DNA of 19,090 bases from an uncultured Methanosarcinales archaeon (GCA_964344235.1 CAYFMJ010000016.1:1-19090); one strand, 5' to 3'; numbered from the stretch's first letter, positions 1 to 19,057 are shown. Program-made: numbers and translations. Notes: generated by a model from the letters alone, not told the origin.

Positions 1-1350
1 AAATAGGTGGTGTGTTTCGTACACCCAGACCGTACGGACTCCTCCAAGCCCGTTTTCTCTGTGGGAGCGTGCTTTATTTTTCAAGGACGACTTTTCCGTT
101 GAATGCACCAATGTAATGCCAACCCCTAGTGATACATTCTTCTGCTTCATCTGCATTGACGACCCGTTGCTCGCTTCTGTTTTCCCGTTGTCAAGTTCAC
201 TTAACAACTCTTGGACTTTTGCGAGTTGTTCGGGTGTCATGTTTTCAACTTGTGCTTTTACATCTTCTTTCTTGGTTTCTATTGGGTCTTCTTCGCTTTT
301 CTCAATGTCAAGTTCTTCCTCGCATCTCTTGAAGGCTTCTTTCATTTCGCTAAGCAAATCTTGAGGAAGCATTCCTTTGTTGGTTGTGTACGTTGATTCA
401 ATCGAACCTTTGTGTCCCATAAAGAACACTCGGAAATCATGTGCTATCTTTCCTCTTGATTCAGCGATTAGAAGTCTTGTATCAAAGAAGCACCTTAGAA
501 CGTAAGGCCTCCAATTGAATCTTGGACGTATAGTTCTCCTAACCTCTCTCCTTATGATTGGTGTTGTGAGGAAAGTTTTGTTCTCGTTGTCTCCTCTTCC
601 GTACTTGTATCTGTGGTCAGGTGCAATCACAGCATCATCAGGGCCAAGTGATTCTCCTGCAAGTATTCTCTGATTGAGATATGCTAGAAGCGTCTTGCCT
701 CCTTCATTTGTTATGAAGGTGAAATATCCAAATCCGTTTTTGGACAGTTCAGTTCTTACCATTATTCTTGATGGCTTTCTGATGAAAGTAGCGATTCCCT
801 TGACAATGGAAAGGTCTGGAAGGTCTTTTATTCTCAGTCCGTCGGTTGCATCGCAGTTGCCTAGAACTTCTGGACGAAGACCTGCCTTTCCAATCAATGA
901 GATTATTGCTCTCGTCCTCGTGTCTGCAAGATTGTATAGTTCTGCAAGTTCGTCTGCCTCTGGAACTCTTTCGTCTTTTAGAGAAGGAGTTGTTGAGGAA
1001 TTTTTTACATTCAGTTTCCTAGTTATAGTTACGTCGAAGTGAGACAGCCAAGACTTTACTGTTATCTTTATTCCGTTTATGTAAGTTGGAAGTTTTCCGT
1101 CGTTTTCCATGTTCGTGATGTGATCCTGTAACAAGTCAGTAACAGTCCTTACATCTTTCATGCCTAATTCTGCTACCTGTATTGGAGTCATTTCATGTGC
1201 ATCACAGAAAGTAGATAATCTTCGTAAGTATGCGTTGGCAGTATTCTTACTTCCTCTAGCAATATTATCATACCATCTTTTTACGTCTGGGTTGGCTAAC
1301 AGACGTGCTTTTTTTGTCATCCTTGTTTGTTGTGTCTTTAACATTTGCAT
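1..1350 (-). CDS. int: Tyrosine recombinase/integrase 1 (archaeal RPYVLR-type). Absent from the ORF track because the frame runs off the left edge; probably frameshifted near its C-terminus
   Basis: Manual translation from ATG 1350 (GAGGT upstream): MQMLKTQQTRMTKKARLLANPDVKRWYDNIARGS...GKAGLRPEVLG...ELSKNG...NWRPYVLRCFFDT...FFMGHKGSIESTYTTNKG. Catalytic R, K, YxxR (in place of HxxR), H and Y are present. No stop codon between 1350 and base 1. Confidence 0.88.
   Translation of the reverse strand, partial: MQMLKTQQTRMTKKARLLANPDVKRWYDNIARGSKNTANAYLRRLSTFCDAHEMTPIQVAELGMKDVRTVTDLLQDHITNMENDGKLPTYINGIKITVKSWLSHFDVTITRKLNVKNSSTTPSLKDERVPEADELAELYNLADTRTRAIISLIGKAGLRPEVLGNCDATDGLRIKDLPDLSIVKGIATFIRKPSRIMVRTELSKNGFGYFTFITNEGGKTLLAYLNQRILAGESLGPDDAVIAPDHRYKYGRGDNENKTFLTTPIIRREVRRTIRPRFNWRPYVLRCFFDTRLLIAESRGKIAHDFRVFFMGHKGSIESTYTTNKGMLPQDLLSEMKEAFKRCEEELDIEKSEEDPIETKKEDVKAQVENMTPEQLAKVQELLSELDNGKTEASNGSSMQMKQKNVSLGVGITLVHSTEKSSLKNKARSHRENGLGGVRTVWVYETHHLF
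34..54 (+). repeat. Left attachment site core, ACGGACTCCTCCAAGCCCGTT
   Basis: Identical to 19037-19057. Internally an imperfect inverted repeat, ACGGACT-CCTCCA-AGCCCGT (6/7 arms, 6-bp asymmetric spacer). CCCAG also recurs 5 bp upstream of both copies. Confidence 0.9.
59..74. repeat. Element-side arm next to the left att core, inverted partner of 19016-19031
   Basis: The reverse complement of 59-74 (AAGCACGCTCCCACAG) matches 19016-19031 (AAGCACGTTCCCCCAG) at 14/16 positions. Each arm lies 5 bp from the 20-bp palindromic core. Confidence 0.7.
74..190 (-). other. Out-of-frame (-1) segment encoding the probable native integrase C-terminus, QRENRSEQRVVNADEAEECITRGWHYIGAFNGKVVLEK*
   Basis: Open between TGA (191-193) and TAA (74-76). 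It resembles the QxVV..E.E..I..GW.(Y/F)I....GKVVL tail I recall from this archaeal integrase family, and it stops at the att arm. Confidence 0.6.
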
Positions 1351-1415: not shown

Positions 1416-1461
1416 CGCATCTTGAGGTTTCCCTCTATCTATTATTTGTCTTAACTTATAT

Positions 1462-1479: not shown

Positions 1480-1551
1480 CTATTATTTATACTTGCATGG
1501 ACAAGTATCAAACACGGAGATAGCAAAGACTTTCTCCAAAAGGTGATAGAG

Positions 1552-1659: not shown

Positions 1660-1660
1660 G

Positions 1661-1780: not shown

Positions 1781-1783
1781 GTA

Positions 1784-1876
1784 TTGGATGACTTCAACTT
1801 AACTGCAAAAGACCTTGAAACTCTAATGTGGATGGAAACAGGACTGCCAAGTCTTAGAATAAAACCGAAATTTTGA
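1784..1876 (+). CDS. 30-aa micro-protein MDDFNLTAKDLETLMWMETGLPSLRIKPKF (TTG start; not in ORF track)
   Basis: A strong GGAGGTG RBS overlaps the previous stop, at plausible spacing from the TTG. Confidence 0.45.
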   Translation: MDDFNLTAKDLETLMWMETGLPSLRIKPKF

Positions 1877-1917
1877 GAAAGGCAGATACTTATCCTTTTG
1901 ATAAAAACTGTTGTATT

Positions 1918-2139
1918 ATGGCAAGAGATTGGACGGAAGAAAAGAGAAGACAAACTAAAGAAATTCTTAAGGTTTTAAGAGAAACGTATCCCGATTCTTT
2001 GAACATTAGTCAAATAGCAAAAAAGGCAAAAATGCATCGTCATACTGTACCTCAATACCTAGACGATCTAGTTAAGGAAAAGAAAATTATTGCTAGGACT
2101 GTTAGTCGCTGGAAGGTTTACAGAATTAAGAGGAAATAA
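1918..2139 (+). CDS. Winged helix-turn-helix DNA-binding protein (73 aa from ATG 1918)
   Basis: EILKVL...SLNISQIAKKAKMHRHTVPQYLDDLVKEKKI...VSRWKVY is a typical archaeal wHTH. ATG 1918 is preferred over the track's TTG 1873. Confidence 0.8.
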   Translation: MARDWTEEKRRQTKEILKVLRETYPDSLNISQIAKKAKMHRHTVPQYLDDLVKEKKIIARTVSRWKVYRIKRK

Positions 2140-2226
2140 TTGTTTTTTGATCGCAAATATGAATAATTGAATAAATAGGAAAGACACCAATAAGAGTAGT
2201 TTTCAAGAAAATAGAGATGTGATAAT

Positions 2227-4521
2227 ATGGTTTTGATTAATAATCAACTGGTACTGAATTTTCTGCCAATCGAAATTTCTGGAAAATCTTTCAAATCGTA
2301 TGTAAGTAAATTCACTTCTAAGGATGAATTGATAAAATTACGAGAAGAAAACCCACATTGTATTTTTCATAGGATAGGAGATGTTATTCATTGCATTCCA
2401 ATTTCCGAAGGAATAACAATAGGCAATGAACAGATCTTAGAAGTTAATGATAATTTAGGAATAGTTCGCAGACTTGTTTCAGAGAAAATACAAAAAGCAA
2501 TTATTGGAACAAATAGAGTTATCACAAAATTTCCTAATTCTTTTATAGATACCAACAAGAATCTTCTTGAAGACCTTTCTGATTATTCTGATAAACTTCA
2601 AGGAATGCGCCTTTACCCAGAAATATCAATTGATGTAAAAATAATCACTAATCAAAATGGAAATCCAAAGTTAGGAATTGTAATAGATGCACATGCTCTT
2701 TACGATATTTCTGAAAATGTAGCAACTCTTATTCAGAAAGGACTTAATGTAGAAGGTTTGTATGTAGTTAAGAAATCATTTTCCCGAATAGGAGATAAAA
2801 ATATTCGACGTAGTAGACTAATAGGAAAAATAAAATCAATAACAGGTGAAATGGCAAAATTAACAGATTATAGAGAATCTGATTCTGTTAATACTTCAGA
2901 ATGTCATTTAGAAGCGAGTAGAACAAATCGTAATTTATTATTAGAAAGAATATTTCAAAATGATTCTGGAAAAGTTAAGAAAGCAATTGACAATGTTGTA
3001 CTTCAAATTATAGGTGGAGAAGGTAAGTATGGGTTAATCAAATCCATCACAAAAGAGATTGAATCGATGAGTGACACAAAATTAACGGAAAATGTATCCT
3101 TTACAGTAGAAAAAGAGTTTCTTCCTGCTTCTAACGGTGAAATAAACACGAGACAAATTTCCAAACCCACATTCGTTTACAGTCCAGCAAAGGATAAGGT
3201 GGATACATGGCACAATAGAGGTCTCATCAATAATGGTCCTTTTGATTTGGAAGTTTTTTCTCATAAAGAACCCAAAATAGTTGTTGTAGTTCCAGATTCT
3301 TACAAAGGTGAAGTTGAAAAATTCCTAAATGTATTCCAAAATGGGTATAATGGAAATAGGTATTTCCAGCAAGGATTTGTTAGAAAATATCATTTGAATA
3401 GAATTCAAAAAATGGACTTTATCAACGTAAATTTTTCATCAGCGAATATTCCATCGGCATATCGAGAAGCATGTTTGGAAGCACTTGAGAAGGATACCTA
3501 TGATCTTGCCATTGTAATAATTGAAGAAAAATTCCATGAGTATCATGGTGATAGTGATCCTTATCTGGTGTCGAAGTCTATCTTTATGTCTCAGGGTATT
3601 CCTGTTCAAGAAATTGAAATTGAAAGTATCCGCCAAGGTGAAAGATCTTGGCCATATACGCTAGATAATTTTGCGCTTGCATGTTATGTAAAAATGAATG
3701 GTACTCCTTGGACACTTTCAACCTATGAGCCAATCTACCATGAGTTGGTTATAGGTATGGGAAACGCTGTAGTAAAAAAAGAAAGATTAGGAGAATCGGA
3801 TAGATTTGTTGGGATTACTAATGTTTTCAGTGCAGATGGAAGTTATCTTCTCAATAATATTTCCAGTGATATTAGAATGGAAAATTACAAAGAAGAACTA
3901 CTCAAGAGTCTTCAATCCTTATTCGATTATGTTTCTAAGCGTAATGCTTGGCAAAAAGGAGATAACGTTAGGCTTATCTTTCATCAACAATTCAAAGATT
4001 TCAAAGATGAAGATATTGAAGCAATAAAAGAATTTGTTCAACAATACCAAGACTACAACATTGAATTTGCCTTTGTTCGTCTAAGTGAGAGACACCCATT
4101 TCAGATTTATGATACAAGTCAGAATGGCGTTGCCCATAAGTTCGATAAAGATTTTTCAAACCGTGGTTTAATCAAAGGAAAGTTTGTGCCAGAACGAGGT
4201 TTTGGTACACAACTTGGCCCAAAAAGTATGTTACTTACAATAACAGGCCCAAGTCAACTTATTACTCCCTTTCAAGGAATTCCAAAGCCACTTCAAATTT
4301 TTATTCATAAAGATTCAACATTTGTCGATATTAATTACATAACAAGACAGATTTTTCAGTTCACGTTTCTAAATTGGAGAAGTTTCAATCCTACGTCCAT
4401 TCCTGTTACAATTTTATATTCAAACCTAATTGCAGGTTTTTTAGGTAAACTTCGTGGTGTAACAAACTGGAATCCTGATGCTATCAGAACTAAATTGAAG
4501 TACAGTCGGTGGTTCTTGTGA
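2227..4521 (+). CDS. ago: Long-B prokaryotic Argonaute (RsAgo-like), PIWI catalytically inactive
   Basis: 764 aa with RsAgo-like motifs: GPFD, the MID pocket PYLVSK..QGIPVQ..YVKMNGTPW, ELVIGMG..RFVGITNVFSADGSYLL, VRLIFH, NWRS..PVTILYS, and a KLKYSRWFL C-terminus. G, H and N occupy the catalytic D/D/X positions. Confidence 0.93.
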   Translation: MVLINNQLVLNFLPIEISGKSFKSYVSKFTSKDELIKLREENPHCIFHRIGDVIHCIPISEGITIGNEQILEVNDNLGIVRRLVSEKIQKAIIGTNRVITKFPNSFIDTNKNLLEDLSDYSDKLQGMRLYPEISIDVKIITNQNGNPKLGIVIDAHALYDISENVATLIQKGLNVEGLYVVKKSFSRIGDKNIRRSRLIGKIKSITGEMAKLTDYRESDSVNTSECHLEASRTNRNLLLERIFQNDSGKVKKAIDNVVLQIIGGEGKYGLIKSITKEIESMSDTKLTENVSFTVEKEFLPASNGEINTRQISKPTFVYSPAKDKVDTWHNRGLINNGPFDLEVFSHKEPKIVVVVPDSYKGEVEKFLNVFQNGYNGNRYFQQGFVRKYHLNRIQKMDFINVNFSSANIPSAYREACLEALEKDTYDLAIVIIEEKFHEYHGDSDPYLVSKSIFMSQGIPVQEIEIESIRQGERSWPYTLDNFALACYVKMNGTPWTLSTYEPIYHELVIGMGNAVVKKERLGESDRFVGITNVFSADGSYLLNNISSDIRMENYKEELLKSLQSLFDYVSKRNAWQKGDNVRLIFHQQFKDFKDEDIEAIKEFVQQYQDYNIEFAFVRLSERHPFQIYDTSQNGVAHKFDKDFSNRGLIKGKFVPERGFGTQLGPKSMLLTITGPSQLITPFQGIPKPLQIFIHKDSTFVDINYITRQIFQFTFLNWRSFNPTSIPVTILYSNLIAGFLGKLRGVTNWNPDAIRTKLKYSRWFL

Positions 4522-5732
4522 GTGATAAAATTGGAAATACAATTCAAAATCAATTGACTGAAATTATTTCCTTTTTAGAAAAAAACAATTTAGAAGGAAA
4601 CAATGAAGGTCTCTTTTCAAAGTATGTGTTGTCCAAAAAAGACCAGACCAAACTTGATTGGAAAGTAAACTGTACTTCTAAGTGGATAGAAGAAAATTCA
4701 CAAACTATATCCCAAGGAAACTATACAAACCTAGCATCATTAGGCTTCTCTTTACATCTAGATTCCCAAGAAAATCAAAACCAAATTTTCAAAGAAGGTT
4801 TTAGACAATTAATGCAAAGAGATCCATTTCTAGGAGATCGTATTTCGTTTCCCTTTTTCCCAAGATTATTTTTAGGCATAGTTCTTGGAGTTCAAACAAT
4901 AGAGGAAACAAGAGATGCAAATCTGTCTTGGCTTAAAGGGATTTACAACAAGCGTAGTGAAATGGGCGACTTTGATTCGACACAAAAATTACAATACTCT
5001 GTTGTAGAAAATATGCTTAATGAAAAACAGACCTACATTGACCATTCGACTATTGAATCGTTAACCAAACTTGAGGAATTTTGTATTGTATACTGGGGCT
5101 ACAAGAATGGAATATTCTTATTTCATAGCCCAGAAAAAACATATTCTTTAGTTGAAAATGAAATTATTTCTAGATTTACTTTACAAAATATAGAATCTTT
5201 TGATGAATCACTGTTAGCATTTGTCTACTATTCTGTAAGCAACATCGTCATTGATACTACGGTATCATCCCTAATGTCAGTAAGTCATATTTCAAAAATA
5301 TTACAAAATTTTGAGAGTGCTATGAAACGATGGATATTCAACGAAAACAAGAAATGGAGAATTGATAATGAAAAAGATGTTCAGAGCATACTATACCTAA
5401 TTCTTAGATCGGTTTTTGAAGATGCTCAATATGAAGAACCCACAGACAAATTTGGTCATGGATGGTCTGTAGTAGATTTGAAAATTCCATCCCTAAAGTT
5501 GTTAATAGAGGTAAAGTTTGCAAGACAGTCAAGTGATTTCAGCAAAATTGAAGATGAAATCAAGATAGATAGTGTAGATTATGTAAAATCCACAGACTAC
5601 AAAAAAATAGTTGTTTTCATTTATGATAACAGTTCAAGTGTGCAAGATCATGAAACTACTAAAAATGCAATGAAAAAAATAGATTCAATCGAAGATGTTG
5701 TTATTGTCTCAAAGCCTTCTCATATAACATAG
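4518..5732 (+). CDS. Argonaute-associated nuclease with a C-terminal PD-(D/E)xK (DpnII/MboI-like REase) domain; BPAN-type effector
   Basis: NEKDVQSILYLILRSVF..YEEPT..VDLKIPSLKLLIEVKF..KIVVFIYD is a PD-(D/E)xK core. GTG 4518 overlaps the pAgo stop (GTGA); the track starts at GTG 4509 in the same frame. Confidence 0.85.
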   Translation: MSDKIGNTIQNQLTEIISFLEKNNLEGNNEGLFSKYVLSKKDQTKLDWKVNCTSKWIEENSQTISQGNYTNLASLGFSLHLDSQENQNQIFKEGFRQLMQRDPFLGDRISFPFFPRLFLGIVLGVQTIEETRDANLSWLKGIYNKRSEMGDFDSTQKLQYSVVENMLNEKQTYIDHSTIESLTKLEEFCIVYWGYKNGIFLFHSPEKTYSLVENEIISRFTLQNIESFDESLLAFVYYSVSNIVIDTTVSSLMSVSHISKILQNFESAMKRWIFNENKKWRIDNEKDVQSILYLILRSVFEDAQYEEPTDKFGHGWSVVDLKIPSLKLLIEVKFARQSSDFSKIEDEIKIDSVDYVKSTDYKKIVVFIYDNSSSVQDHETTKNAMKKIDSIEDVVIVSKPSHIT

Positions 5733-6044
5733 TCAAATCTTTGTTGGAAGTCCAGCATCCTTTAGTCGTTTAAGAATTTCTTTACGAGAAGGTGCATTGG
5801 ATATAGAACCATCTTTCAATTTTTTCTGAATTTTTTCTTGTTTTGCACCGCATTTTGCACAGTCATTTTGTACATCTTCTCTTTCTTTTGATTCATGTGT
5901 AGATCTTGCCTTTTTACCTGCTACACTGCTAGACAAGTTTTGATTCTTTATTGGAAAAATATGTTTGATTACAATAATTCCTTTACCACAGAAGGGGCAT
6001 TCAATTTTTTCTAAACGGTCTCTTTCAAATGTACCATAAGACAT
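5733..6044 (-). CDS. Small basic Zn-ribbon protein (CPFC...CAKC)
   Basis: Two CxxC pairs. ATG 6044 is the likely start (track: TTG 6089). Its stop abuts the nuclease stop with zero gap. Confidence 0.65.
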   Translation of the reverse strand: MSYGTFERDRLEKIECPFCGKGIIVIKHIFPIKNQNLSSSVAGKKARSTHESKEREDVQNDCAKCGAKQEKIQKKLKDGSISNAPSRKEILKRLKDAGLPTKI

Positions 6045-6092: not shown

Positions 6093-8285
6093 TCAAATAT
6101 CAAGAACCTTCCAATCTGAAAGGTCACTAGGGTCATATTGATACTTTTTGTTGTCATTATAACGCCAACTACCATTTACATAAATCAAAATTCCTCCCCA
6201 TAGTTTTTTCCCTTTTTTGTTTTGGGCCAGAATGTATTTTTGAAGGCCGTCTGCACGGGTGCCAGCATCTTTGGCAGTAATACCACTTTTTGTATCAAAC
6301 AAACCAATAGTTCCATCTTTGAACATAACTATGAAATCAACATAAAATCCTCTTTCAAAATCACTTTCATCTTTATACAAAACAGCAAAATATTTGATTT
6401 CACTTTCTCCATTCTTAAACCACCATTTTACTTTGTTGGATTGTGATAGTAATTTCATGAAATCTTTCTCTGGTTGACTGGGATTTTTTAGATAAGTTGG
6501 TTCCATTATTGAATTAGAATAACTGGTTTTTTTGTATCTACTATTATAACTAATAATTATTGGAACTTCCCAATTTGCTATTTCTTTTATTTCTCTTTTT
6601 TCACTTAACTGCTTAACTACAGTTGTTTTGTAATGTTCCTTTGATAGATTAATACAATCAACAAACGCTTGTACATTCTCTTTTCCTAAAACAATTTTTT
6701 GTGCAGTTGGATCAAATTTTTCAATGTTACATTCTTTCTTTAAGAATTGGTATAGAGAAGTTTTCATTCTATCGCTTGAATCACGCGGTGCGAAAGGAGT
6801 ACAATTAGAACTTATGAAATTATCAAATCGTCTCTGTAATTCATGGTCTGTTAATTGGACATCAACAGTTCCTTCATGTTCAATTTCACCTGTTTTATCG
6901 ATGTTTACGATTTTCCCATCTGCTATTACTGGGCTAACTATCTTAGATGGGCTTAACTTAATTTTCTCTTTAAGACCTGTTTTAGAAGCAGATTTCATGA
7001 ATATTTTAGCAAATTCACCAGATAGTCTAGTTCTTTCTCTCTGTCTTTTGAGATAAATAGAATTCAACTCAACATTAGAGTAGAGTTCTGGTCTTCTCTT
7101 TGCCTCGTTTACTGTAACATAATCTTTAACAAAATCTTCTGTTATCTCTATGTTCTCTAAATTAGTAAAAACAAAGCCCCTGTTTAGTTCATCGTGTTTT
7201 AGATAGTGTTTTTGTTCTGGCATCCTCATAATCCTTCCAATTGTTTGAATTGTAAATGTGAAACTTTTCGATTCTCTAAAAATAACTAATATTGATGCTC
7301 TAGGACAATCCCATCCTAAAGCAATGGCTTGTTTGAAAACTAAAACTTCAACTTCATTATCATTTTTTTCTATATTTGGTAAAGTATCAGATTTGTCTTC
7401 GGATAACCAGATTGCTAATTTTCCATTTTCTTCAGTAATACCAAATTTATTTTTGAGAATTTTAACAACTTGTTCTTTTTTATCTTCTAAGCCTTCTCTT
7501 TTGTCTGGAAGTTGAATTAAAACTAGTGGATTTACATTAGATTTTTCTGCATGATACATTTTTAGTAATTCTTCACGTTTTTTCAACGATTGTTCTATTA
7601 CTAACTCATCTGCACTTTTAGAACCAATCTTAATGCTCTTAAATTCAGGATTAACTGCAATTTCTGTCTTTATCATCTCTTCTTCTTTAACATCACTAAG
7701 ATTCACTTTTACAATCGCTGAAACATCTTCTTTTAGATGAGGTGTTGCTGAAACTTCAAAAGTTATTTTAGGAGATATGATTTCGATTAATTCTTTTGAT
7801 TTCTCAGAACTTGCAGTATGATGACTTTCATCAATTATTAGAATTATTTCTCTGCCTTCTTCTTTGGTATTTTTTATAATATTATTTAGATTGTTATCTT
7901 GTTCATTATCTCTAACGTAAATATTGATATCTTTCTTGTTTATGCTGTGCCAATTAATGAAGAGAATTTCATTTTCGCTTAATTTTTTATCTTGTAAGTC
8001 ATCAAAATAAGAGCAATGTAATGTCTGGTCAACTTCGTAAAACCTTTCTAATTTGTCTTTACTTTGATCGTGTAGTTTTCTTACAGAAATCCAAATAAAG
8101 GAAAATTTGTGCTGTTTTTGGGATTTTACGAATCTTTTTAGGAATTCTGCCATTATGATGGTTTTGCCAGAGCCTGTAGGAGCCTGAAATACACAAATTT
8201 CATTTTCGTGTGATCTGAGAAGATTTTCTGAATTTTCTAAAAGTCTTTCTACGGCATTTTCCTGATAATCTCGTAATACAATCAT
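6093..8285 (-). CDS. res: Type III restriction enzyme Res subunit (SF2 helicase-like ATPase plus C-terminal nuclease)
   Basis: LRDYQ, QAPTGSGKT, IIDESHH, SATP, ALGWDCPRA, QTIGRIMR, and C-terminal FYVDFIV..LFDTK. Its ATG overlaps the mod stop (ATGA). Confidence 0.92.
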   Translation of the reverse strand: MIVLRDYQENAVERLLENSENLLRSHENEICVFQAPTGSGKTIIMAEFLKRFVKSQKQHKFSFIWISVRKLHDQSKDKLERFYEVDQTLHCSYFDDLQDKKLSENEILFINWHSINKKDINIYVRDNEQDNNLNNIIKNTKEEGREIILIIDESHHTASSEKSKELIEIISPKITFEVSATPHLKEDVSAIVKVNLSDVKEEEMIKTEIAVNPEFKSIKIGSKSADELVIEQSLKKREELLKMYHAEKSNVNPLVLIQLPDKREGLEDKKEQVVKILKNKFGITEENGKLAIWLSEDKSDTLPNIEKNDNEVEVLVFKQAIALGWDCPRASILVIFRESKSFTFTIQTIGRIMRMPEQKHYLKHDELNRGFVFTNLENIEITEDFVKDYVTVNEAKRRPELYSNVELNSIYLKRQRERTRLSGEFAKIFMKSASKTGLKEKIKLSPSKIVSPVIADGKIVNIDKTGEIEHEGTVDVQLTDHELQRRFDNFISSNCTPFAPRDSSDRMKTSLYQFLKKECNIEKFDPTAQKIVLGKENVQAFVDCINLSKEHYKTTVVKQLSEKREIKEIANWEVPIIISYNSRYKKTSYSNSIMEPTYLKNPSQPEKDFMKLLSQSNKVKWWFKNGESEIKYFAVLYKDESDFERGFYVDFIVMFKDGTIGLFDTKSGITAKDAGTRADGLQKYILAQNKKGKKLWGGILIYVNGSWRYNDNKKYQYDPSDLSDWKVLDI

Positions 8286-9982
8286 TTGAATATCCTCCTA
8301 TACACGTTTAGTATAACTTGTGGTATAGGTTTTAAATTAACGAGTTCCAAAACATCTTCAAATTCTTCTTCTCTTGCACTCTCATCTAACGAAAAAACAT
8401 AAACGTTGATTTTTTTACCTGATTTCTTTACTTCTTTTTTGAATGCATCAATTCCATTATCATCATAAACTATACCCAAATAGTCACCGTCATTATTTTT
8501 AAAAATTTTAAAGAATTTTCCTGCTTTGACATCATTAAAACAATTTTCTTTTAAACAAAGCATTTCTGTTGATTGGTCTACTAATTTTTTCTTATTTTTA
8601 TCAGTTGGTTCTCCCTCTACAAACGCAGTTTTAAAATATTTTAAACTATCTTGAAAGCCTGTTATTTTTACACCATCCATATTTTTGTATCCTTTCAAAC
8701 ATTTTTCAATTCTTGGATAACAAACATCTGTACAAATATTATTTTCATTATTAGTGCAAAGAATAAATTTTCTATTTCCATCATCTTCATTATTTAATTC
8801 CAGCAATGCGTGTGCGGTTGTTCCAGAACCTGCAAAAAAATCTAATATTATTGAATTTTCATTACTTGCTATTTCTATTAATCTCTTAATAAGACCGACA
8901 GGTTTTGGAAATTTGAATTTTTCATCACCATTAAAGATATCTTTGAGTATTTCAGAACCAGATTTTGTTGATCCTACATCACGAAGCACTGTTTTAGGAT
9001 TAACAATAGTTCTTTCTTTTCTATATCTAAGAACACCATTACGATTAAAATAAAATTCAAGAACTTTTTGTCCTTTTGTATCTATTGTTTCTTTTCCTGA
9101 AAACCATTGCTCCATCTGTCTTTTTTGTGCCCAGCCTGCTTCCAGAGTAACCTTATGAAGCAATTTCTTGTTTTTACAAATCATTTTTCCTGATACTAAC
9201 CTTGTAGTTTCTGCACCTCCCCATTGGCCTTTTAATTCACTTCCGTTATCAGCGTCCCATCTAGTTCCTGCTGGAAAGGTAAATTTACTGGCAGGGTTTT
9301 TACGACTAATTATCTTTAATGCAGAATGATCAATTATGCCACCTCCGCCTGAGAAATTATCAAGTATGTCTTTATTTTTTGCATATGCCAGAATATATTC
9401 ATGTGATCTTGTAAAATGGCCTGCTTGAGTTCCTGTACTAAGATCCCAAACTAGTACTGATAATAGATTCTTTTCTAGAAAAACCTCATCACATAGAAGT
9501 TTTAATTGTGAAATTTCATTATCGTCAATCGAAATAAAAATTACGCCAGAATTTTTCAAAAGATTTTTTGCTAGTTTCAATCGTTTATTCATAAAAGAAA
9601 GCCATTTGCTGTGTCGATAAGCATCTTCCTTATCGACAATTTTATCATTATAACGAAAGGTATCACCGTTTCCTGTATTGTATGGAGGATCAATGTAAAT
9701 TATGTCCACATTTCCTTTGTGGGTATAGTTTAAAACAGAAAGTGCGTGATAGTTATCTCCTTCAATCAGAATGTGTGTAGAAGATTTTGTTTTAGATTTA
9801 ATTTCTTTATTTTTTACTTCTTTTAGAACAGGAAGATTTCCTTGTGCCTCTCTATCAAATTTTTCTTTAGTTTTTTCTTCGTCCCAAACTATGCCATACT
9901 TCTTTCTTTTCTTGAGTTTCTTAATTTCTCGAATTAAATCATTCTTTGACCAGTCTTTGAAATCCCCGTTTGTTTTATTCAC
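8282..9982 (-). CDS. mod: Type III R-M Mod subunit (adenine DNA methyltransferase)
   Basis: LIEGDNY, IYIDPPYNTG, WLSFM..RL, FISIDDNE, FPKP..LI, ILDFFAGSGTT. Directly upstream of res. Confidence 0.93.
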   Translation of the reverse strand: MNKTNGDFKDWSKNDLIREIKKLKKRKKYGIVWDEEKTKEKFDREAQGNLPVLKEVKNKEIKSKTKSSTHILIEGDNYHALSVLNYTHKGNVDIIYIDPPYNTGNGDTFRYNDKIVDKEDAYRHSKWLSFMNKRLKLAKNLLKNSGVIFISIDDNEISQLKLLCDEVFLEKNLLSVLVWDLSTGTQAGHFTRSHEYILAYAKNKDILDNFSGGGGIIDHSALKIISRKNPASKFTFPAGTRWDADNGSELKGQWGGAETTRLVSGKMICKNKKLLHKVTLEAGWAQKRQMEQWFSGKETIDTKGQKVLEFYFNRNGVLRYRKERTIVNPKTVLRDVGSTKSGSEILKDIFNGDEKFKFPKPVGLIKRLIEIASNENSIILDFFAGSGTTAHALLELNNEDDGNRKFILCTNNENNICTDVCYPRIEKCLKGYKNMDGVKITGFQDSLKYFKTAFVEGEPTDKNKKKLVDQSTEMLCLKENCFNDVKAGKFFKIFKNNDGDYLGIVYDDNGIDAFKKEVKKSGKKINVYVFSLDESAREEEFEDVLELVNLKPIPQVILNVYRRIFK

Positions 9983-10934: not shown

Positions 10935-11240
10935 ATGGAATTAGAAGACGATAAGGAAAAACTGAAAAGTATTTTCCGTTGTGAATTGGATGGAAAGCGT
11001 TACTATTCAGAATCTGTCGAGTGCACTAACTGTAAAAGAATTTGTTGTCTTAACCACATCAAAAACTTTCACGACGAAGAGAAAGGATTTGATTATGCTT
11101 TATGTTCAGAGTGTTATCCCCTAAAGGAAAAAGAGATAGAAGAAAAAGAAAGAAAGGAATACATCGAGAAGGCTAAGATTATTCTCTATCTTCTTGTTGC
11201 CTTCACTGTAATTGCATTGGTGTTTAGATATGCTAGATAA
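10935..11240 (+). CDS. Cys/His-rich zinc-binding protein with a C-terminal transmembrane anchor
   Basis: C..(CTNC)..CC.NH..CSEC followed by IILYLLVAFTVIALVF. Confidence 0.7.
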   Translation: MELEDDKEKLKSIFRCELDGKRYYSESVECTNCKRICCLNHIKNFHDEEKGFDYALCSECYPLKEKEIEEKERKEYIEKAKIILYLLVAFTVIALVFRYAR

Positions 11241-12597
11241 TGTTTTCAAAAACGACATGACAAAAGCACTAGAAAAGGCAAAATGTACTCTAGTTTCAAC
11301 ATTAAATATTGCATGGAATGATGAAAATAAAGTTCTTGTAGTTATAGAAAAAAGACAAAACAGTTACGATATTCATGCAATTAGAATTTATCTTGTAGAA
11401 GATAAAATGCACAAAGTAAGTGCATCTGCAACAACTGACAAAATATCATCTCTTGGAAGCGTTCTAGCAACAAAAATACACAATGTAAGTGTCATGCAAG
11501 GTAAGGGGTCAAGAGTCAAAGACCCACATACATGTCTTGAGGTTTTGTTTACAGTTGATGAATATGAAGAAGAATCTACCCTAATGCCGATTGTTCCTAT
11601 GCAAGAACTAAACCAATATCCAACGGATGGGGGACTATTCGGATATGTCTGCGATCCTTATCTGAATCCCACAAAAACCCCACTTTACATCACGCCTGAA
11701 ATGGTCTTACATCATATCATTGTATCAGGGTCTACAGGATTTGGCAAGACATCCATTCTATTTAGAATCATTACAGAACTCAACAAAGAAAACATCACCG
11801 TATTGGTTCTCACCCCTGAGTCCCATCTACAAACATGGAAATCCTTGGCTAATTCTATTGAGATAGATGAGGAAGTAAGGGAAGGAAAAGTAAACATTCT
11901 CAACTTATCCTATGCCAATAATCTCAAAGAAGAGTCTAGCAGGATACTCAAAGAACTGATAGATAATTACTCAACTCTTGAAGAGACAAGAGGTGTAAGA
12001 CTAACACTTGTTATTGATGAGTCTGAACAGTTTGACCAAGAAAGGATAGAAGAATGTGTTAGGACGTTAAGGAAATTTGGAATCGGTGTAATAGTAGTTT
12101 CTCACAAGTTTACAGGTGATGGAGGCGTTAACGGTAGTATACGTGCCAACGTAAACACTCACATCTCTACTCAAACGGCATGGGAACCAGATATACAAGA
12201 GATGAGAAAGTACCAGCCGAAGAAAGGTTCTGATTTTGCAGGAGTTCTTCGTGTAGCACCTAGAGGATTTTGTGTGGTTAGAAGCAGTTTCCTTAACAGG
12301 GGGTTACCCACCCCCTGCAAGGTGCTTAGAGAATACGAAAAGTTACAGTATGTTGAAAGTAGTTCTTTTGATTCATTACCAAAGGTAACAGGTGACCAAA
12401 CACATGAAAGAAAACGTACGGTTCTTGATGTTATACGACGTAATGCTGGAATTACCGCCGAAGAAATAATGCTCCAACTGAAAATTCCAGAGAAAGAAAA
12501 GAGGTCATTATACCGTACGGTTAGGTATCTAGAAAATGAAAATCTCGTAATAGTAACTACGGGAGACAAGAATCGTAAACATTACACAGTAAGATAA
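11230..12597 (+). CDS. HerA/VirB4/FtsK-superfamily P-loop ATPase with a C-terminal winged helix
   Basis: HIIVSGSTGFGKT (Walker A), LVIDES (Walker B), LRKFGIGVIVVSH. The C-terminus RTVLDVIRRNAGITAEEIMLQL..SLYRTVRYLENENLV is wHTH-like. ATG 11230 overlaps the previous ORF. Confidence 0.8.
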   Translation: MLDNVFKNDMTKALEKAKCTLVSTLNIAWNDENKVLVVIEKRQNSYDIHAIRIYLVEDKMHKVSASATTDKISSLGSVLATKIHNVSVMQGKGSRVKDPHTCLEVLFTVDEYEEESTLMPIVPMQELNQYPTDGGLFGYVCDPYLNPTKTPLYITPEMVLHHIIVSGSTGFGKTSILFRIITELNKENITVLVLTPESHLQTWKSLANSIEIDEEVREGKVNILNLSYANNLKEESSRILKELIDNYSTLEETRGVRLTLVIDESEQFDQERIEECVRTLRKFGIGVIVVSHKFTGDGGVNGSIRANVNTHISTQTAWEPDIQEMRKYQPKKGSDFAGVLRVAPRGFCVVRSSFLNRGLPTPCKVLREYEKLQYVESSSFDSLPKVTGDQTHERKRTVLDVIRRNAGITAEEIMLQLKIPEKEKRSLYRTVRYLENENLVIVTTGDKNRKHYTVR

Positions 12598-12601
12598 GGG
12601 G

Positions 12602-12644
12602 GGTGTTTGACTGTCAATGACAGTCATTGTCACTGTCAAACACC
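12602..12644. repeat. 43-bp nested inverted repeat built from TGACA/TGTCA units
   Basis: Perfect 10-bp outer arms GGTGTTTGAC / GTCAAACACC, inner palindrome CAATGAC-A-GTCATTG (12615-12629), and an extra GTCAAACA at 12645-12652. Confidence 0.8.
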
Positions 12645-12665
12645 GTCAAACAGAAGAGGTGAGAT

Positions 12666-12863
12666 ATGATGAGGCCAAAACTAATGGTACTTTGGCGATG
12701 TAATAATCCGTACTGTCCAACCATAGGAGAAGCGACCGAACCTTTGGCAGTCGACTATTCTACAGTAGATTACAACATAGCCAAATGCCCTCGTTGTGGG
12801 GAATATACTCTGGAAAAAATCAAGGAAGTTTGGACTTCAAGCCTTGATGATGAGGAAATATAA
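12666..12863 (+). CDS. Small Zn-ribbon protein
   Basis: CNNPYC...CPRCG; GAGGTGA RBS upstream. Confidence 0.7.
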   Translation: MMRPKLMVLWRCNNPYCPTIGEATEPLAVDYSTVDYNIAKCPRCGEYTLEKIKEVWTSSLDDEEI

Positions 12864-13174
12864 TGAAATTGGGAGAGAGGATCGAAGAGTTCAGTGCTGA
12901 GAGAAAAATAAGTTTTGATGGAGAATGTTACCATCTAAGACTTCCAATAGACATAATGAAGACTGTACGAAAATACGTTGAAAACATCTTAAATGTTCAT
13001 TGGAGTGGTATTTGGAAAAATGATGACTGGTTATATGTTGTTCTTGGTTTCAAGATGAAAGAGACTGTAAAAGAAACAAAATCAGAAAAAATAACTGTTA
13101 AACAAAATGATGATGGAGATTATGTTGTTCTAAAAGATAGTTATGTCAATGTTTACGAAAGAAGAACTAGATGA
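12863..13174 (+). CDS. Hypothetical protein, possibly an AbrB-like beta-hairpin DNA-binding protein
   Basis: RKISFDGECYHLRLP resembles AbrB-type N-termini (weak resemblance). Coupled to the previous stop (TAATG). Confidence 0.5.
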   Translation: MKLGERIEEFSAERKISFDGECYHLRLPIDIMKTVRKYVENILNVHWSGIWKNDDWLYVVLGFKMKETVKETKSEKITVKQNDDGDYVVLKDSYVNVYERRTR

Positions 13175-13280
13175 AGTCTTGAAAAGATTTGGGTCGAGGT
13201 TCAAGCATATTGAACCCCATGTTATTCTAATTCTTTATGCTTATTTCAAAATGGAAGCACTAAAAGAAATGAAACAATAG
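13143..13280 (+). CDS. 45-aa micro-protein MSMFTKEELDEVLKRFGSRFKHIEPHVILILYAYFKMEALKEMKQ (not in ORF track)
   Basis: Helical, protein-like composition. It fills the gap to 2 nt from the convergent integrase 2 stop. Confidence 0.4.
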   Translation: MSMFTKEELDEVLKRFGSRFKHIEPHVILILYAYFKMEALKEMKQ

Positions 13281-13282
13281 TT

Positions 13283-14572
13283 TCATTTCCTCTGTGCAAC
13301 CATTATGGCGTGTTCTTTAAGAGGAGGAGAGAGGTTTGGATGTGCATTTTTCATTTGTAAAATCTCGTTAAGTTTCTCTTCTATCATTTTCTTAACAAAA
13401 TTTTCTAGAGAATCTGGTTGAGAAAACATTTGTGCTGTTGCGTTTGCATCAATAGTTCTTTGTTGTTCTATGTCCATAGGATTGTTTTCATCAAGTGGCT
13501 TTGTACATTTTTGACAAACTACTGAGGTAACACCGTTCATGTGTTCACAGTTTTTACATATCTTTGGTTTTAACAAACTTTCAACAGGTTTCTTCTCTCT
13601 TTTTATTCCATAAAATTCTAACAGAGGGTCTTCGACATCCTCACCACTAAGATGAAGATAGACTTTCCACATCTTTGAATCTCGACCCCAGCCCATGATT
13701 TGGTTCATTGTAGCAGGGTCTTTCTTAAGGATACGGTATAGTTTGGTGGCTCCGAGATGACGGAAACTATGTGGGTTTGCTCTTGCTTTTACTCCTGCAA
13801 TTTTGGCGGATCGTATTAACATCATTCTAAACTCGGCATAGTCCATTGGTTTTCCATAGTTACCACCACGAAGTTTAACAAACAGGTAGGCTTCGGGATT
13901 ATCCTTGTCAGGATGTTCAAAATTCAGATAGTTGTCAATAAACGGGGCAGAAGCAATCAATGGAATGGGCCTCTGTCCTGTTTTTCCATCTAAAAGGATC
14001 ATGTAGCCATATTTCCATTTCTTGAGATGTTTTATTTGGGGAGGGCCTATTTCTCCTATCCTGCCACGACTGTCAGCAAGTGCCATAATGAACGCTTTGT
14101 CACGGTGATATTTCTGGACTTTAACCATTTTTATAATATCTTCTTCGGTGAGATCAATCCAAGGATATTTTTTTTCGTCTCTGCTTCTAAGTTTAATCCA
14201 TTTTACACAGTCTGGATATTCTTCTCCTCCATTAAGCCACTTGTAGAACTTCTTTGTTCCAACTTTGTAATGATACTTTGTTGCTTCTGCACATTTGTAC
14301 AGTTCTATCGTTTTTACAAGTTCTTTTATGTCTCTCTTGCTTGCTTTTCTAAAATCTTTTTTCATCCACTTTCCGACTTTCAATAAACTGAATGCATGTC
14401 TTGTTGTTGTAGGAAAAGCAAGTGGACTTCCGTGTCCTGCTCCGTCAATCCTACAGTCATCTAAGAAGTCTAGTATTAACTTCCTGTTTTGTTTTGTAAT
14501 CTCATCGTTTTTCTCGATGAGTTTTCGTGCACCCTCCAAACGTTTTTCATAGTTGTAGATGTCTCTTTTCAT
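13283..14572 (-). CDS. int: Tyrosine recombinase/integrase 2 (Xer-like archaeal family with a C-terminal Zn ribbon)
   Basis: DIYNYEKRL N-terminus, RGRIGE, DGKTGQR, PHSFRH, IMGW, KVYLHL, then CKNC..CQKC. GGAGGT RBS at 14579-14584. Confidence 0.9.
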   Translation of the reverse strand: MKRDIYNYEKRLEGARKLIEKNDEITKQNRKLILDFLDDCRIDGAGHGSPLAFPTTTRHAFSLLKVGKWMKKDFRKASKRDIKELVKTIELYKCAEATKYHYKVGTKKFYKWLNGGEEYPDCVKWIKLRSRDEKKYPWIDLTEEDIIKMVKVQKYHRDKAFIMALADSRGRIGEIGPPQIKHLKKWKYGYMILLDGKTGQRPIPLIASAPFIDNYLNFEHPDKDNPEAYLFVKLRGGNYGKPMDYAEFRMMLIRSAKIAGVKARANPHSFRHLGATKLYRILKKDPATMNQIMGWGRDSKMWKVYLHLSGEDVEDPLLEFYGIKREKKPVESLLKPKICKNCEHMNGVTSVVCQKCTKPLDENNPMDIEQQRTIDANATAQMFSQPDSLENFVKKMIEEKLNEILQMKNAHPNLSPPLKEHAIMVAQRK

Positions 14573-14586
14573 AACACTACCTCCGA

Positions 14587-14872
14587 CCGTACGGAATTAC
14601 TTTTTAGTAGTCCTATTGATTACTTGTATTCGCTTTCCTAAAAACAAAACCCGTACGGTTGTTCCGTACGGTGACATTTCGTTAATTCAGAAGGTTAGTA
14701 CACCAAACTTGAGTATTGGTGGACCGGCCGAACATTCTATGTTAAGTTCACCTTACTGACATAGTACGGTTTTGTTTTTTACGACGAAACCAATAGGCCG
14801 TACTGTTTCCGTACGGTCTTTCTAAGTAATTTATTGAATGAGAAAGGATTTATGTTTGAAACCGTACGGTTT
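14587..14872. repeat. Array of CCGTACGG palindromes upstream of integrase 2
   Basis: Perfect copies at 14587, 14651, 14664, 14809 and 14862 (the last inside the 14-bp palindrome AAACCGTACGGTTT); degenerate copies at 14762 and 14798. Confidence 0.85.
14717..14730 (-). other. 14-bp fragment CGGCCGGTCCACCA matching an archaeal tRNA-Ala 3' end; putative att core for integrase 2
   Basis: Reads as T-stem 3' bases, acceptor 3' strand CCGGTCC (with the U70 alanine determinant), A73 and CCA. No other tRNA arms are present. It sits inside the palindrome array. The match is from memory of archaeal tRNA-Ala sequences. Confidence 0.65.
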
Positions 14873-14881
14873 TCAAGAATT

Positions 14882-15043
14882 TTATTCCGTTAGTTTTCGA
14901 TATTTCTTTTGCAGTTTAATGTATTCCTCTATAACGTCGTGACAATCTCTGCAAACCATTACCTTCTTTCGTATTTCTTTATCATGGTGTTCTGTAAGCG
15001 GTTTATCTTCTTTACAACAAGGACATTTACCCCATCCACCCAT
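14882..15043 (-). CDS. 53-aa minimal HNH-like zinc-finger protein (not in ORF track)
   Basis: MGGWGKCPCCKEDKPLTEHHDKEIRKKVMVCRDCHDVIEEYIKLQKKYRKLTE has the CxxC..HH..CxxCH pattern. Confidence 0.65.
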   Translation of the reverse strand: MGGWGKCPCCKEDKPLTEHHDKEIRKKVMVCRDCHDVIEEYIKLQKKYRKLTE

Positions 15044-15085
15044 GAAAATAGGATCAAAACCAATGATTTAACAATTTTCAGAGAA

Positions 15086-15616
15086 TCATGGATTTTCCAA
15101 TAATTCTTTATGTTCATTAGGATCAAGATAAACTAACATAATCTCATTAAGAATCGGTTTACATCTGCCAAGAAAATAATCGTACATTTTTCGGTCAGTA
15201 AGAACCATGTATTTTTTATTTGCGTATGCTCTGCTTAATAAAAAACAATCTCCCAAGATTGACTCATAAGCCACGTTTGCCTTATCATGTTTACTTGATT
15301 TTACCATTCCAATAATTTCTCTTTTATCTGGTTCACCTTCGGTATGTCCATACAAACCTGTTAATTCCATAAAGTATGGATTGTTCTTGTAGTGAGTAAT
15401 CTTACCGTGTGTTTCTTCATATTGTTTTATTTTAGAATTTAATTCCTCAATTTCTTTTCTGTTAGGTTGAGATGTAATATCAAATTCAAAACCATACATA
15501 CTATTATTTTCATCCCAAAACCAAACCCTGTCTTTTGTTAATTTGATGCCGTCATTTTCTTTACTGCACCATCGTCTAGACATTTCTTCTTTTTGCATCC
15601 AACTTAATTCGTCCAA
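15086..15616 (-). CDS. Hypothetical protein, possibly a degenerate PD-(D/E)xK fold
   Basis: FEFDITS...DKREIIGMVKSSK...ILGDCFLL...KKYMVLTD weakly recalls small PD-(D/E)xK proteins, but has M where E of ExK is expected. Start codon uncertain. Confidence 0.45.
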   Translation of the reverse strand: MDELSWMQKEEMSRRWCSKENDGIKLTKDRVWFWDENNSMYGFEFDITSQPNRKEIEELNSKIKQYEETHGKITHYKNNPYFMELTGLYGHTEGEPDKREIIGMVKSSKHDKANVAYESILGDCFLLSRAYANKKYMVLTDRKMYDYFLGRCKPILNEIMLVYLDPNEHKELLENP

Positions 15617-15759
15617 CGTTGATTTATTACCAAATCCTTAGAAAAAGATTCTGTAAAACCTATCAGTTGATTATTTGTAGGAATTACGAATGGTTAACTG
15701 TAGATTTGAACCCATATCAATGATGATTCTTAAATTGAATTAATTGTTAGGATTGTAAG

Positions 15760-17361
15760 TTGGAATACCACTGGATAGAATGGGAAGATTACGACAGCGT
15801 AGAGCAAAAATCTAGAAGAAAATGTGTTATTCTTGAGAAGGAAGTAGTTTTTGATGAACAGAAAATCAAACTATCAAATATTACAATTTCAGAGTTTGCA
15901 GTTTACGGTTTATCTGATATTCAAAAACAGAATGTTGAGAGTTGGATAAAAAAATGGAAAGAAAGAGGTGGTAAATGGAAATGGTATGATCGTCCCAAAC
16001 CCGATATCAAAATTTTGGATAATGATGAACTTCTTTTGCAAATTGAAACGCTTTTCACAAATGAACCAAATCATGAGAAAGGTTTCTACTCTTACTACGG
16101 CATTGGCATACTAAAGAGTAAATTCACAGAGGAAGAGTTCCAGAAGATGATTCCAAAGAGTGCATTAAGAACTTTTAGAGAGTATGATATAACAGACACT
16201 AAGTGGCGTAAACTACCAACACACGACTCAAGCAAACGTCAAGGTTTTCTTGGTTTCATAGTCGACGACAATCTTGAGATGACACACTATCCTGTTTTGT
16301 TCAACTTTGATGAGTTTGCACATACTCACATGTTTCTTTCTGGAATGACAGGTAGTGGAAAAAGCATAACAGGTTTTGACATAGCAGAAGAAGCGTTAGA
16401 TAACAGTATCCCTGTTTTGGTTCTGGATTACTATGGAACATGGACAGGTTTTCTTGAACCTTGTAATGACAAGAATCTTTTGAAAAATTATTTTGTATTT
16501 GGAATGGGAAAACCAAAATCATACGAAGGAGCAATATACACTCCGTCATCAGATGTTGGTAAACCGCTAAACATGAATCTGTTAGCAAAACCACCGACTG
16601 ATGACCAAAGCAAACTACAACAATTCGCTATAGAAGCATCTTTAATTATACAACAGTTCTGCGATCTTACCAAAGACGAAAGACTTGCAGTAAGAGCGTG
16701 TATATTTGAAAAATGGAAAGAAGGGCAAGACCTCAACTACAAAACCATTGCCGATGTTGTTGGAAATGACAAGACTAAGATGAGACTTGAGGAATTACTG
16801 GCAGTCTCTTACCTCTTTGAAGGGGAAAGACCAAAGATTAATGACCTGTGGAAAGATGGAGAGATTTCTGTAATTTCGTTCGATGAAATGCGTTCAGAAA
16901 AAGCAGAGATGTTCACTGCGTACTACGTACTTCGAGAGTTGGTAAACTGGTCTGATTCACTACCAGATTCTCCAAATAAAATCAATCTTTTAGTCGTAGT
17001 GGAAGAAGCCCACAAGTTTACCGAGAAAAATGTATGGGCCATGATGGATACGGCAGTAAAAACACTGAGAAAGAAAGGTATCGGATTGCTTTTCATCACA
17101 ACAGGAATTACAGATCTTGAAGGCATTAGAGGAAATACAAACTTCAAGACGTACATGAAAACGGAATATGATAACGATATTGATAGGATTGGCAGAGATA
17201 TTGGAGATTACAAATCACTTATGAAAATTTTGCCTGCTGGAATGGGGATTATCAAATATCCTGACTTTGGAATACCTGTGATAACACAATTCAGACCATG
17301 TTATCATAGACCAACAAAACTTACTACTGAAGAGATAAGAGAGAAGACGCATAATGAATAG
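15760..17361 (+). CDS. Second HerA/VirB4-like (DUF87-type) P-loop ATPase
   Basis: HMFLSGMTGSGKS, IPVLVLDYYG, LVVVEEAHKF, TLRKKGIG. Colinear motifs with 11230-12597. TTG start uncertain. Confidence 0.82.
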   Translation: MEYHWIEWEDYDSVEQKSRRKCVILEKEVVFDEQKIKLSNITISEFAVYGLSDIQKQNVESWIKKWKERGGKWKWYDRPKPDIKILDNDELLLQIETLFTNEPNHEKGFYSYYGIGILKSKFTEEEFQKMIPKSALRTFREYDITDTKWRKLPTHDSSKRQGFLGFIVDDNLEMTHYPVLFNFDEFAHTHMFLSGMTGSGKSITGFDIAEEALDNSIPVLVLDYYGTWTGFLEPCNDKNLLKNYFVFGMGKPKSYEGAIYTPSSDVGKPLNMNLLAKPPTDDQSKLQQFAIEASLIIQQFCDLTKDERLAVRACIFEKWKEGQDLNYKTIADVVGNDKTKMRLEELLAVSYLFEGERPKINDLWKDGEISVISFDEMRSEKAEMFTAYYVLRELVNWSDSLPDSPNKINLLVVVEEAHKFTEKNVWAMMDTAVKTLRKKGIGLLFITTGITDLEGIRGNTNFKTYMKTEYDNDIDRIGRDIGDYKSLMKILPAGMGIIKYPDFGIPVITQFRPCYHRPTKLTTEEIREKTHNE

Positions 17362-19015: not shown

Positions 19016-19031
19016 AAGCACGTTCCCCCAG
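19016..19031. repeat. Element-side arm next to the right att core, inverted partner of 59-74
   Basis: AAGCACGTTCCCCCAG, 14/16 match to the reverse complement of 59-74. Confidence 0.7.
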
Positions 19032-19036
19032 TCTCG

Positions 19037-19057
19037 ACGGACTCCTCCAAGCCCGTT
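19037..19057 (+). repeat. Right attachment site core, ACGGACTCCTCCAAGCCCGTT
   Basis: Identical to 34-54. Confidence 0.9.

Follow-up and report, generated by a model that had tools for sequence, protein, structure and literature searches.

A BPAN-type Argonaute–nuclease pair as probable defence cargo of an archaeal integrative element

Long-B prokaryotic Argonautes (pAgos) occur in both domains of prokaryotes (PMC6299218). The BPAN system, in which such a pAgo is paired with a bAgaN nuclease, was defined in 2023 (Song et al., PMC10620215), and its activation mechanism was solved by cryo-electron microscopy (cryo-EM) in 2026 (Liu et al., PMC13535254). In the Escherichia coli system EcBPAN (EcAgo and EcbAgaN, PDB 23wq), RNA-guided recognition of DNA leads to non-specific DNase activity and abortive infection (PMC13535254, PMC10620215). 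The nuclease is inert unless the Argonaute is target-bound, and the N-terminal helical domain of bAgaN both binds the Argonaute and autoinhibits the nuclease (PMC13535254). Here we analyse an Argonaute–nuclease pair of this kind at positions 2227-5732 of a 19,090-bp contig (CAYFMJ010000016.1 of GCA_964344235.1), which is contig C16 of a 1.19-Mb metagenomic genome in 37 contigs; "the window" denotes this whole contig. To our knowledge, BPAN has been studied in E. coli only. We consider it very probable that the pair is a functional BPAN system carried as defence cargo of an archaeal integrative element of about 19 kb, whose host most probably belongs to the Nitrososphaerales. The intact archaeal locus is a new member and an extension of a known bacterial system into archaea and not a new system.

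Three other groups of known systems share features with the locus. RsAgo of Rhodobacter sphaeroides uses RNA guides against DNA targets. It has an inactive PIWI domain and the same MID pocket as the window Argonaute, but has been studied as a stand-alone protein. In the short pAgo systems with an APAZ partner (SPARTA, SPARSA and SPARDA), recognition of the invader by an inactive Argonaute likewise turns on a toxic partner, whereas the window Argonaute is full length and its partner has no APAZ domain. The cryptic integrated elements of Thaumarchaeota (Krupovic et al. 2019, PMC6563490) resemble the carrier of the locus in being bounded by an integrase and in having restriction-modification (RM) cargo and Zn-ribbon proteins, and relatives of the window backbone are found in Nitrososphaerales genomes. 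The window differs from them in that its cargo includes an Argonaute system; the words Ago and pAgo occur nowhere in the text of that survey (PMC6563490).

The Argonaute and its nuclease partner

The two genes of the pair are the following.

2227..4521, + strand: long-B pAgo, catalytically inactive, open reading frame (ORF) of 764 amino acids
4518..5732, + strand: bAgaN-type effector, 404 amino acids from the GTG at 4518

The stop codon of the Argonaute (TGA, 4519-4521) and the GTG of the effector at 4518 form a GTGA overlap at 4518-4521. The first-pass annotation of this DNA, made by a model from the sequence alone, had described this coupling to a protein of about 400 amino acids. The gene caller of an independent assembly also placed the effector start at 4518, giving 404 amino acids, while an alternative in-frame GTG at 4509 arises as a by-product of conserved Arg-Trp codons. 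The same order, Argonaute then effector with overlapping genes, is seen in 68 of 79 related loci, which are mostly bacterial. Correspondingly, phmmer aligns residues ~2-406 of the effector with the gene downstream of the Argonaute in 68/79 of these loci.

The Argonaute matches the PADLOC class II model pAgo_II (PDLC02379) from end to end (E 8e-226, residues 8-764, model positions 1-724 of 724) and the Pfam Piwi family with E 4e-18. It is full length, with the domains N, L1, PAZ*, L2, MID and PIWI, and is of the long-B type with a short PAZ. In PDB, its best sequence match is RsAgo (5awh, 6d8p and others; E 7e-107, residues 78-764), next to EcAgo chain 23wq_f (E 1e-102), and the earlier description of a full-length RsAgo-like pAgo agrees with these matches. 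The score against the RsAgo equivalog model NCBIfam NF052569 is 461.5 bits, i.e., below the cut-off of 700, and the protein is therefore a homologue of RsAgo and not its orthologue. The effector matches the PADLOC model Aga_Helical-REase over nearly its whole length (E 3e-95, residues 12-406, model positions 2-392 of 401). The matches of both proteins lie far beyond chance level, and by sequence comparison the Argonaute belongs to the long-B pAgo family and its partner to the bAgaN family, each at full length. The pair is thereby BPAN, the type that the first-pass annotation had assigned.

The Argonaute could also act alone in the manner of RsAgo, lowering plasmid content or transcription, next to a nuclease that is an independent restriction-type enzyme. 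RsAgo, which is the nearest homologue of known structure, was characterised on its own, and the C-terminal domain of the effector matches a restriction-enzyme family, DpnII-MboI, in Pfam. We find this reading very improbable, as the genes overlap and co-occur in the related loci counted above, no methyltransferase is paired with the bAgaN-type nuclease, and the N-terminal domain of the effector is specific to Ago-associated proteins, with a full-length match to Aga_Helical-REase. Moreover, the EcBPAN nuclease does nothing without a target-bound Argonaute (PMC13535254).

Functional residues of the Argonaute were mapped by alignment to EcAgo and to 24 homologues. The 5'-phosphate pocket in the MID domain, Y446/K450/Q461/K489, corresponds to EcAgo Y426/K430/Q441/K469 and is invariant across the 25 aligned sequences, and the C-terminal residue L764 corresponds to EcAgo L731. 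The positions of the catalytic tetrad are G512/E552/Q588/N733, aligned with EcAgo G492/E532/Q568/D700. Since the tetrad retains only its glutamate finger, which is the sole surviving residue in RsAgo and EcAgo as well, the PIWI domain is inactive and the slicer site is dead. The intact pocket and the dead tetrad had both been read correctly in the first pass.

In the effector, residues 260-404 match the Pfam DpnII-MboI restriction endonuclease family with E 1e-37. The nuclease motif D323, E334, V335 and K336 is intact and aligns with EcbAgaN D298/E309/V310/K311, where the D-EVK motif is required for DNase activity (PMC13535254), and D323, E334 and K336 are invariant among 22 effectors. An AlphaFold2 model of the effector (predicted local distance difference test score, pLDDT, 88.3) consists of an all-helical part (residues 6-255) and an alpha/beta part (residues 258-407), and the fold of the latter resembles PD-(D/E)xK nucleases such as CdiA-CT (Z 8.8) and Card1 (Z 8.7). 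These results bear out the PD-(D/E)xK C-terminus proposed earlier.

The N-terminal ~250 amino acids of the effector, which previously had no assignment, are by family-wide alignment the conserved helical domain of the bAgaN family. When compared in VIA-align, this domain resembles alpha/alpha-toroid folds at Z 10-12, which is under the stated noise level for helical proteins. A Foldseek search of PDB up to April 2026, which predates 23wq, gave no match to the effector model at E <= 1e-3. The first-pass annotation had suggested that this domain may be the Ago-sensing module. This has since been shown for the E. coli homologue by cryo-EM in September 2026 (PMC13535254), so the idea has gained support but is no longer new. 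A strongly conserved coil with the motif RDPFxGD at effector residues 104-110 is a candidate for the Argonaute-binding loop and might be the counterpart of EcbAgaN Q81-R90.

Both reading frames are intact with all motif residues present. When compared with a copy from another metagenome (L084; Argonaute 89% and effector 87% identical), the ratio of non-synonymous to synonymous substitution rates (dN/dS) is 0.10 for each gene, i.e., the pair evolves under purifying selection. Decay does occur among the relatives. In L083, the end of a 249-kb ENA contig, the pair is pseudogenised (1350-4321), with Argonaute ORFs of 452 and 142 amino acids and effector ORFs of 190 and 160 amino acids, and a Type III RM system still adjoins the decayed genes. 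The example of L083 might suggest that the window system is likewise a decaying remnant without present function. With the intact frames and motifs and the low dN/dS of both genes, we give this almost no credence; L083 illustrates decay, and the window copy is not decaying.

Comparison with EcBPAN and proposed mechanism

The window pair and EcBPAN are alike in being two-gene operons with the Argonaute first. In both, the Argonaute is of the long-B type, has the Y-K-Q-K pocket and keeps the glutamate finger of an otherwise inactive tetrad, and the partner combines an N-terminal helical domain with a C-terminal PD-(D/E)xK domain carrying D-EVK. The two systems are nevertheless distant in sequence. 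As a single sequence, the window effector can be aligned with EcbAgaN (PDB 23wq) over its C-terminal 60% only (residues 187-405, E 2e-16), and the pair is clearly not near-identical to EcBPAN; a profile of 22 effectors extends the match to EcbAgaN chain residues 103-386 (E 1e-45). The fourth tetrad residue is N733 in the window and D700 in EcAgo, the contact to the guide 5' base is D444 instead of N424, and the contact to the target base is D480 instead of N460. The window system also differs in being archaeal, in being cargo of a mobile element and in having winged-helix and Zn-ribbon genes as neighbours.

Some of these differences affect the parts through which the two proteins would assemble, and here the EcBPAN model may not carry over in full. 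Among the EcAgo residues mutated in the EcBPAN paper, R552, D559 and F323 are kept (R572, D579 and F344 in the window). However, five of the nine mapped interface residues are changed, namely Y318 to F339, R321 to E342, S524 to N544, N554 to A574 and H726 to Y759, and a sixth, EcAgo D400, falls at an ambiguous position within an insert that is absent from the window Argonaute. On the nuclease side, the first ~100 residues of EcbAgaN, including the Ago-binding loop Q81-R90, lie outside all sequence alignments. Judging from the aligned residues, the 8:8 assembly cannot be assumed for the window pair.

With this reservation, homology to EcBPAN supports a mechanism in five steps. The inactive Argonaute would first take up a 5'-phosphorylated small RNA guide via its Y-K-Q-K pocket, and the guided Argonaute would then pair with complementary DNA of an invading virus or plasmid. 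Target-bound Argonaute would recruit an autoinhibited bAgaN dimer via the N-terminal helical domain, and a higher-order Ago-nuclease assembly would free the PD-(D/E)xK domain for indiscriminate degradation of DNA. The final outcome would be death or arrest of the infected cell, i.e., abortive infection. The RNA guides, the DNA targets, the recruitment, the stoichiometry of the oligomer and the abortive outcome are all carried over from EcBPAN and RsAgo and are to be understood as predictions for the window pair.

The integrative element and its archaeal relatives

The pair is located between the following features of the window.

1..1350, - strand: integrase 1, tyrosine-recombinase-like, 450 or more amino acids; its 3' end crosses the left att repeat
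18..54, + strand: left terminal direct repeat (attL), core ACGGACT-CCTCCA-AGCCCGT with 7-bp inverted arms and a 6-bp spacer
1918..2139, + strand: small winged-helix (wHTH) DNA-binding protein, 73 amino acids (call of the independent assembly), directly upstream of the Argonaute
5733..6044, - strand: Zn-ribbon protein, ~103 amino acids, two CxxC pairs, convergent with the effector gene
6093..9982, - strand: Type III RM system (res 6093-8285, mod 8282-9982), beside the Ago pair
11212-12597, + strand: P-loop ATPase of 461 amino acids, backbone
12863-13174, + strand: protein of 103 amino acids, backbone
13283-14572, - strand: integrase 2, tyrosine recombinase, backbone
15760-17361, + strand: HerA/FtsK-like ATPase, backbone
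19021..19057, + strand: right terminal direct repeat (attR), 21 consecutive bases in common with the left copy

The contig is an integrative element of about 19 kb with direct-repeat ends, and the Ago pair lies in its integrase-proximal cargo region. Its content includes two tyrosine-recombinase genes, two HerA/FtsK-type ATPases and the Type III RM system. The 37-nucleotide direct repeat sits 17 and 33 nucleotides from the contig ends and has no further copy in the genome, and the 22-nucleotide cores of attL and attR differ by one base. An empty integration site was not recovered. A circular plasmid was considered and rejected, since the contig ends do not overlap and the sequences flanking the two repeats differ. 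A tRNA gene as integration target within the window was likewise discarded, as ARAGORN and Rfam find none and the repeat lacks the fold of a tRNA arm. Just inside attR, a papain-family (C1) protease gene lies between two chagasin-type (Inhibitor_I42) genes (window 17365-18917).

The backbone (11212..17361) is shared with elements in two other genomes, G001 (contigs C43 and C34) and G415 (C1, a closed thaumarchaeal chromosome of 1.62 Mb). The sister element in G415 (L110, G415:C1:200000-219999, with integrase 1 at G415:C1:196769-198070) has integrase 1 at 61% identity, integrase 2 at 44%, the two ATPases at 31% and 47-48% and the 103-amino-acid protein at 54%. Between integrase 1 and the backbone, in the place of the Ago pair and the Type III RM system of the window, it holds a short pAgo (PADLOC pAgo_I, 2e-146) with a Schlafen/AlbA_2-APAZ partner, together with a Type I RM system. 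The type of pAgo appears to be exchangeable cargo of this element family, with long-B and short pAgo systems occupying one slot.

The G415 element adjoins a tRNA-like gene with an anticodon-loop intron (G415:C1:196640-196800), which ARAGORN missed. A 16-bp repeat of the 3' end of this gene recurs 34 kb away (at about 230529), and a further degenerate copy lies within the 3' end of the integrase gene. It is apparently this tRNA-like gene that the sister element has targeted for integration.

The closest named Argonaute, with 66% identity, is found on a 19.7-kb contig (L003/L103) in a metagenome-assembled genome (MAG) of Nitrosopumilaceae. This contig shares the whole Ago module with the window, comprising the wHTH protein (43% identity), the Argonaute, the effector (56%) and the Zn-ribbon protein (65%). 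It also shares backbone genes, i.e., the ATPase (35%), the 103-amino-acid protein (31%) and integrase 2 (41%). The wHTH protein, which is kept with the module, is a candidate regulator. The Zn-ribbon gene occupies the same position in L003 (5707-6015, - strand) and shows faint Lar-like matches; it was missing from the more distant members of the clade that were inspected, and its product may have an accessory or regulatory role in the module. The integrase upstream of the Argonaute in L003 was considered as a relative of the window integrases and is unrelated to both.

A further relative, L117 (ENA ERZ930063, from the same study), has 77-85% nucleotide identity with the window backbone (12055-17347) and carries other cargo, with a subtilisin (S8) at the position equivalent to the papain-family protease. 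Judged from L117, several variants of the element coexist in the sampled environment. L117 was also considered as a source of the att site and host flank; it is a relative of the element, without an att copy or host flank.

The Argonautes were placed in an unrooted tree of 93 sequences (IQ-TREE quick search, LG+G4). The window Argonaute belongs to a clade of ten members (P0001, P0003, L003 and P0005-P0011) with 100% SH-aLRT support. This clade is nested among bacterial BPAN Argonautes, and its sister is a Dehalococcoidia-containing group, with weak support (80). The three members that can be placed are all in archaeal contexts, i.e., the window contig, the Nitrosopumilaceae MAG and a contig assigned to Bathyarchaeia, with an SLC13 permease that shares 92% identity with a Bathyarchaeia protein from a 3.07-Mb contig. 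An Argonaute labelled as Woesearchaeota (L019) falls in a separate, bacterial-mixed clade. From these sequences, a bacterial origin of the archaeal clade is likely, although not proven because the root of the tree was not inferred. The first-pass annotation had proposed horizontal acquisition in an archaeal context and had suggested a phylogeny as a check. The nested clade, the location in the cargo region of an element and the archaeal relatives of both pair and backbone all agree with that proposal.

In five of the eight loci of the Argonaute clade, an RM system of Type I or Type III lies directly beside the Ago-nuclease pair, with both sides and both strands represented (window 6093-9982; L003 6045-10392; L083 7804-12708; L114 1132-5740; L115 120-5908). 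This recurrence can be read more boldly, as an archaea-specific BPAN lineage in a dedicated slot of Nitrososphaerales elements that swaps long-B and short pAgos, with pAgo and RM co-selected as one functional unit. We regard this as a doubtful, speculative extension. If it were true, RM action on the invader might, e.g., feed or trigger the Argonaute, which would go beyond mere neighbourhood in a defence island.

The location of the pair also bears on whom it serves. The main beneficiary might be the mobile element rather than its host cell. The pair would then work as a module for exclusion or addiction, killing cells into which competing plasmids or elements have come, or cells that have lost the element, and would not be antiviral. 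The pair lies inside an integrative element and adjoins its integrase, related elements have a pAgo system at the same place, and plasmids were the first demonstrated targets of RsAgo and the BPAN systems (PMC10620215). However, the biochemical mechanism would be identical, and only the beneficiary would change; the sequence fits both readings. We hold service to the element to be possible but rather less probable than defence of the cell.

Host of the contig and implications for archaeal defence

The bin that contains the window is a Woesearchaeal (DPANN) genome, 96% complete with 0.6% contamination. Its 16S rRNA scores higher with the archaeal model (1396 vs 1046 bits), and its split RpoB' is 61% identical to that of a named Woesearchaeota MAG and 42% identical to that of the Nitrosopumilaceae MAG. 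The genes of the element point elsewhere. Integrase 1 is found in 56 of 151 Nitrososphaerales genomes, with identities up to 61%, and in none of 250 genomes of the phylum of the bin. Strong matches to the HerA-like ATPase are confined to G415 (47-48%) and G001 (43%), those in the phylum of the bin being partial and weak, and the closest copies of integrase 2 are thaumarchaeal (46% and 43% identity). The Argonaute gave no match in the 400 other genomes of the phylum that were searched, which again agrees with horizontal acquisition. The GC content of the contig is 34.5%, compared to 39.4% for the bin and 33.6% for the sample of the Nitrosopumilaceae MAG. Apart from a weak integrase match, the rest of the bin holds no paralogues of the contig at the DNA or protein level. 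Its ends, which are 72 nucleotides longer in the independent assembly, have no match in the bin either.

Because the backbone, and especially integrase 1, is typical of Nitrososphaerales and integrase 1 was not found in the 250 genomes of the bin's phylum, the host is archaeal and probably a thaumarchaeon. We think it probable that the host is a Nitrososphaerales cell and that the contig was mis-binned into the Woesearchaeal genome. The assignment is indirect, and three observations limit it. Outside the repeats, the flanks of 89 and 105 nucleotides have no counterpart in the other contigs of the bin. The contig has a tetranucleotide correlation of 0.955 with both the bin and the Nitrosopumilaceae sample, a value in the range of bin contigs of similar size. 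Lastly, 86 of the 301 genomes covered in the bin's phylum have integrase 2 homologues, at 34-38% identity (the integrase 2 tallies and the Nitrososphaerales tally for integrase 1 each include one unpublished genome, G245 or G511, on which none of our claims rests).

Together with the completeness and low contamination of the bin and its Woesearchaeal RpoB', the tetranucleotide and integrase 2 data would fit a contig that truly belongs to the DPANN genome. The system would then have been acquired from a thaumarchaeal element, e.g., one of a host or neighbour cell. The distribution of integrase 1, the thaumarchaeal affinity of the HerA-like ATPase and integrase 2, the lack of an Argonaute match in 400 genomes of the phylum, a GC content 5 points under that of the bin and the lack of any sequence connecting the contig with the rest of the bin all speak against this, and we judge it unlikely. 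A Nitrososphaerales host remains our preferred assignment, and the host is archaeal under either placement. The archaeal context seen in the first-pass annotation stands, while the bin itself is most likely not the source of the contig. A bacterial host or a defective nuclease would have told against the earlier reading; the host is not bacterial, and the nuclease motif is intact. Findings on the window contig need a check before they are credited to a Woesearchaeal host. The apparent binning of a thaumarchaeal element into a DPANN genome is a caution for genome-resolved metagenomics.

Collectively, our results make modest additions to what is known, namely a clade of BPAN in archaea and a family of elements with one cargo slot in which pAgo types appear to replace each other. 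The locus is a divergent natural variant in which about half of the interface residues mapped in E. coli are changed, and it could be used to test how general the EcBPAN assembly is. An intact, selected copy of BPAN circulates among archaea on integrative elements, as seen in the Nitrosopumilaceae MAG, the Bathyarchaeia contig and the window contig, and these archaeal groups are abundant, mostly uncultured and have a poorly known antiviral repertoire.

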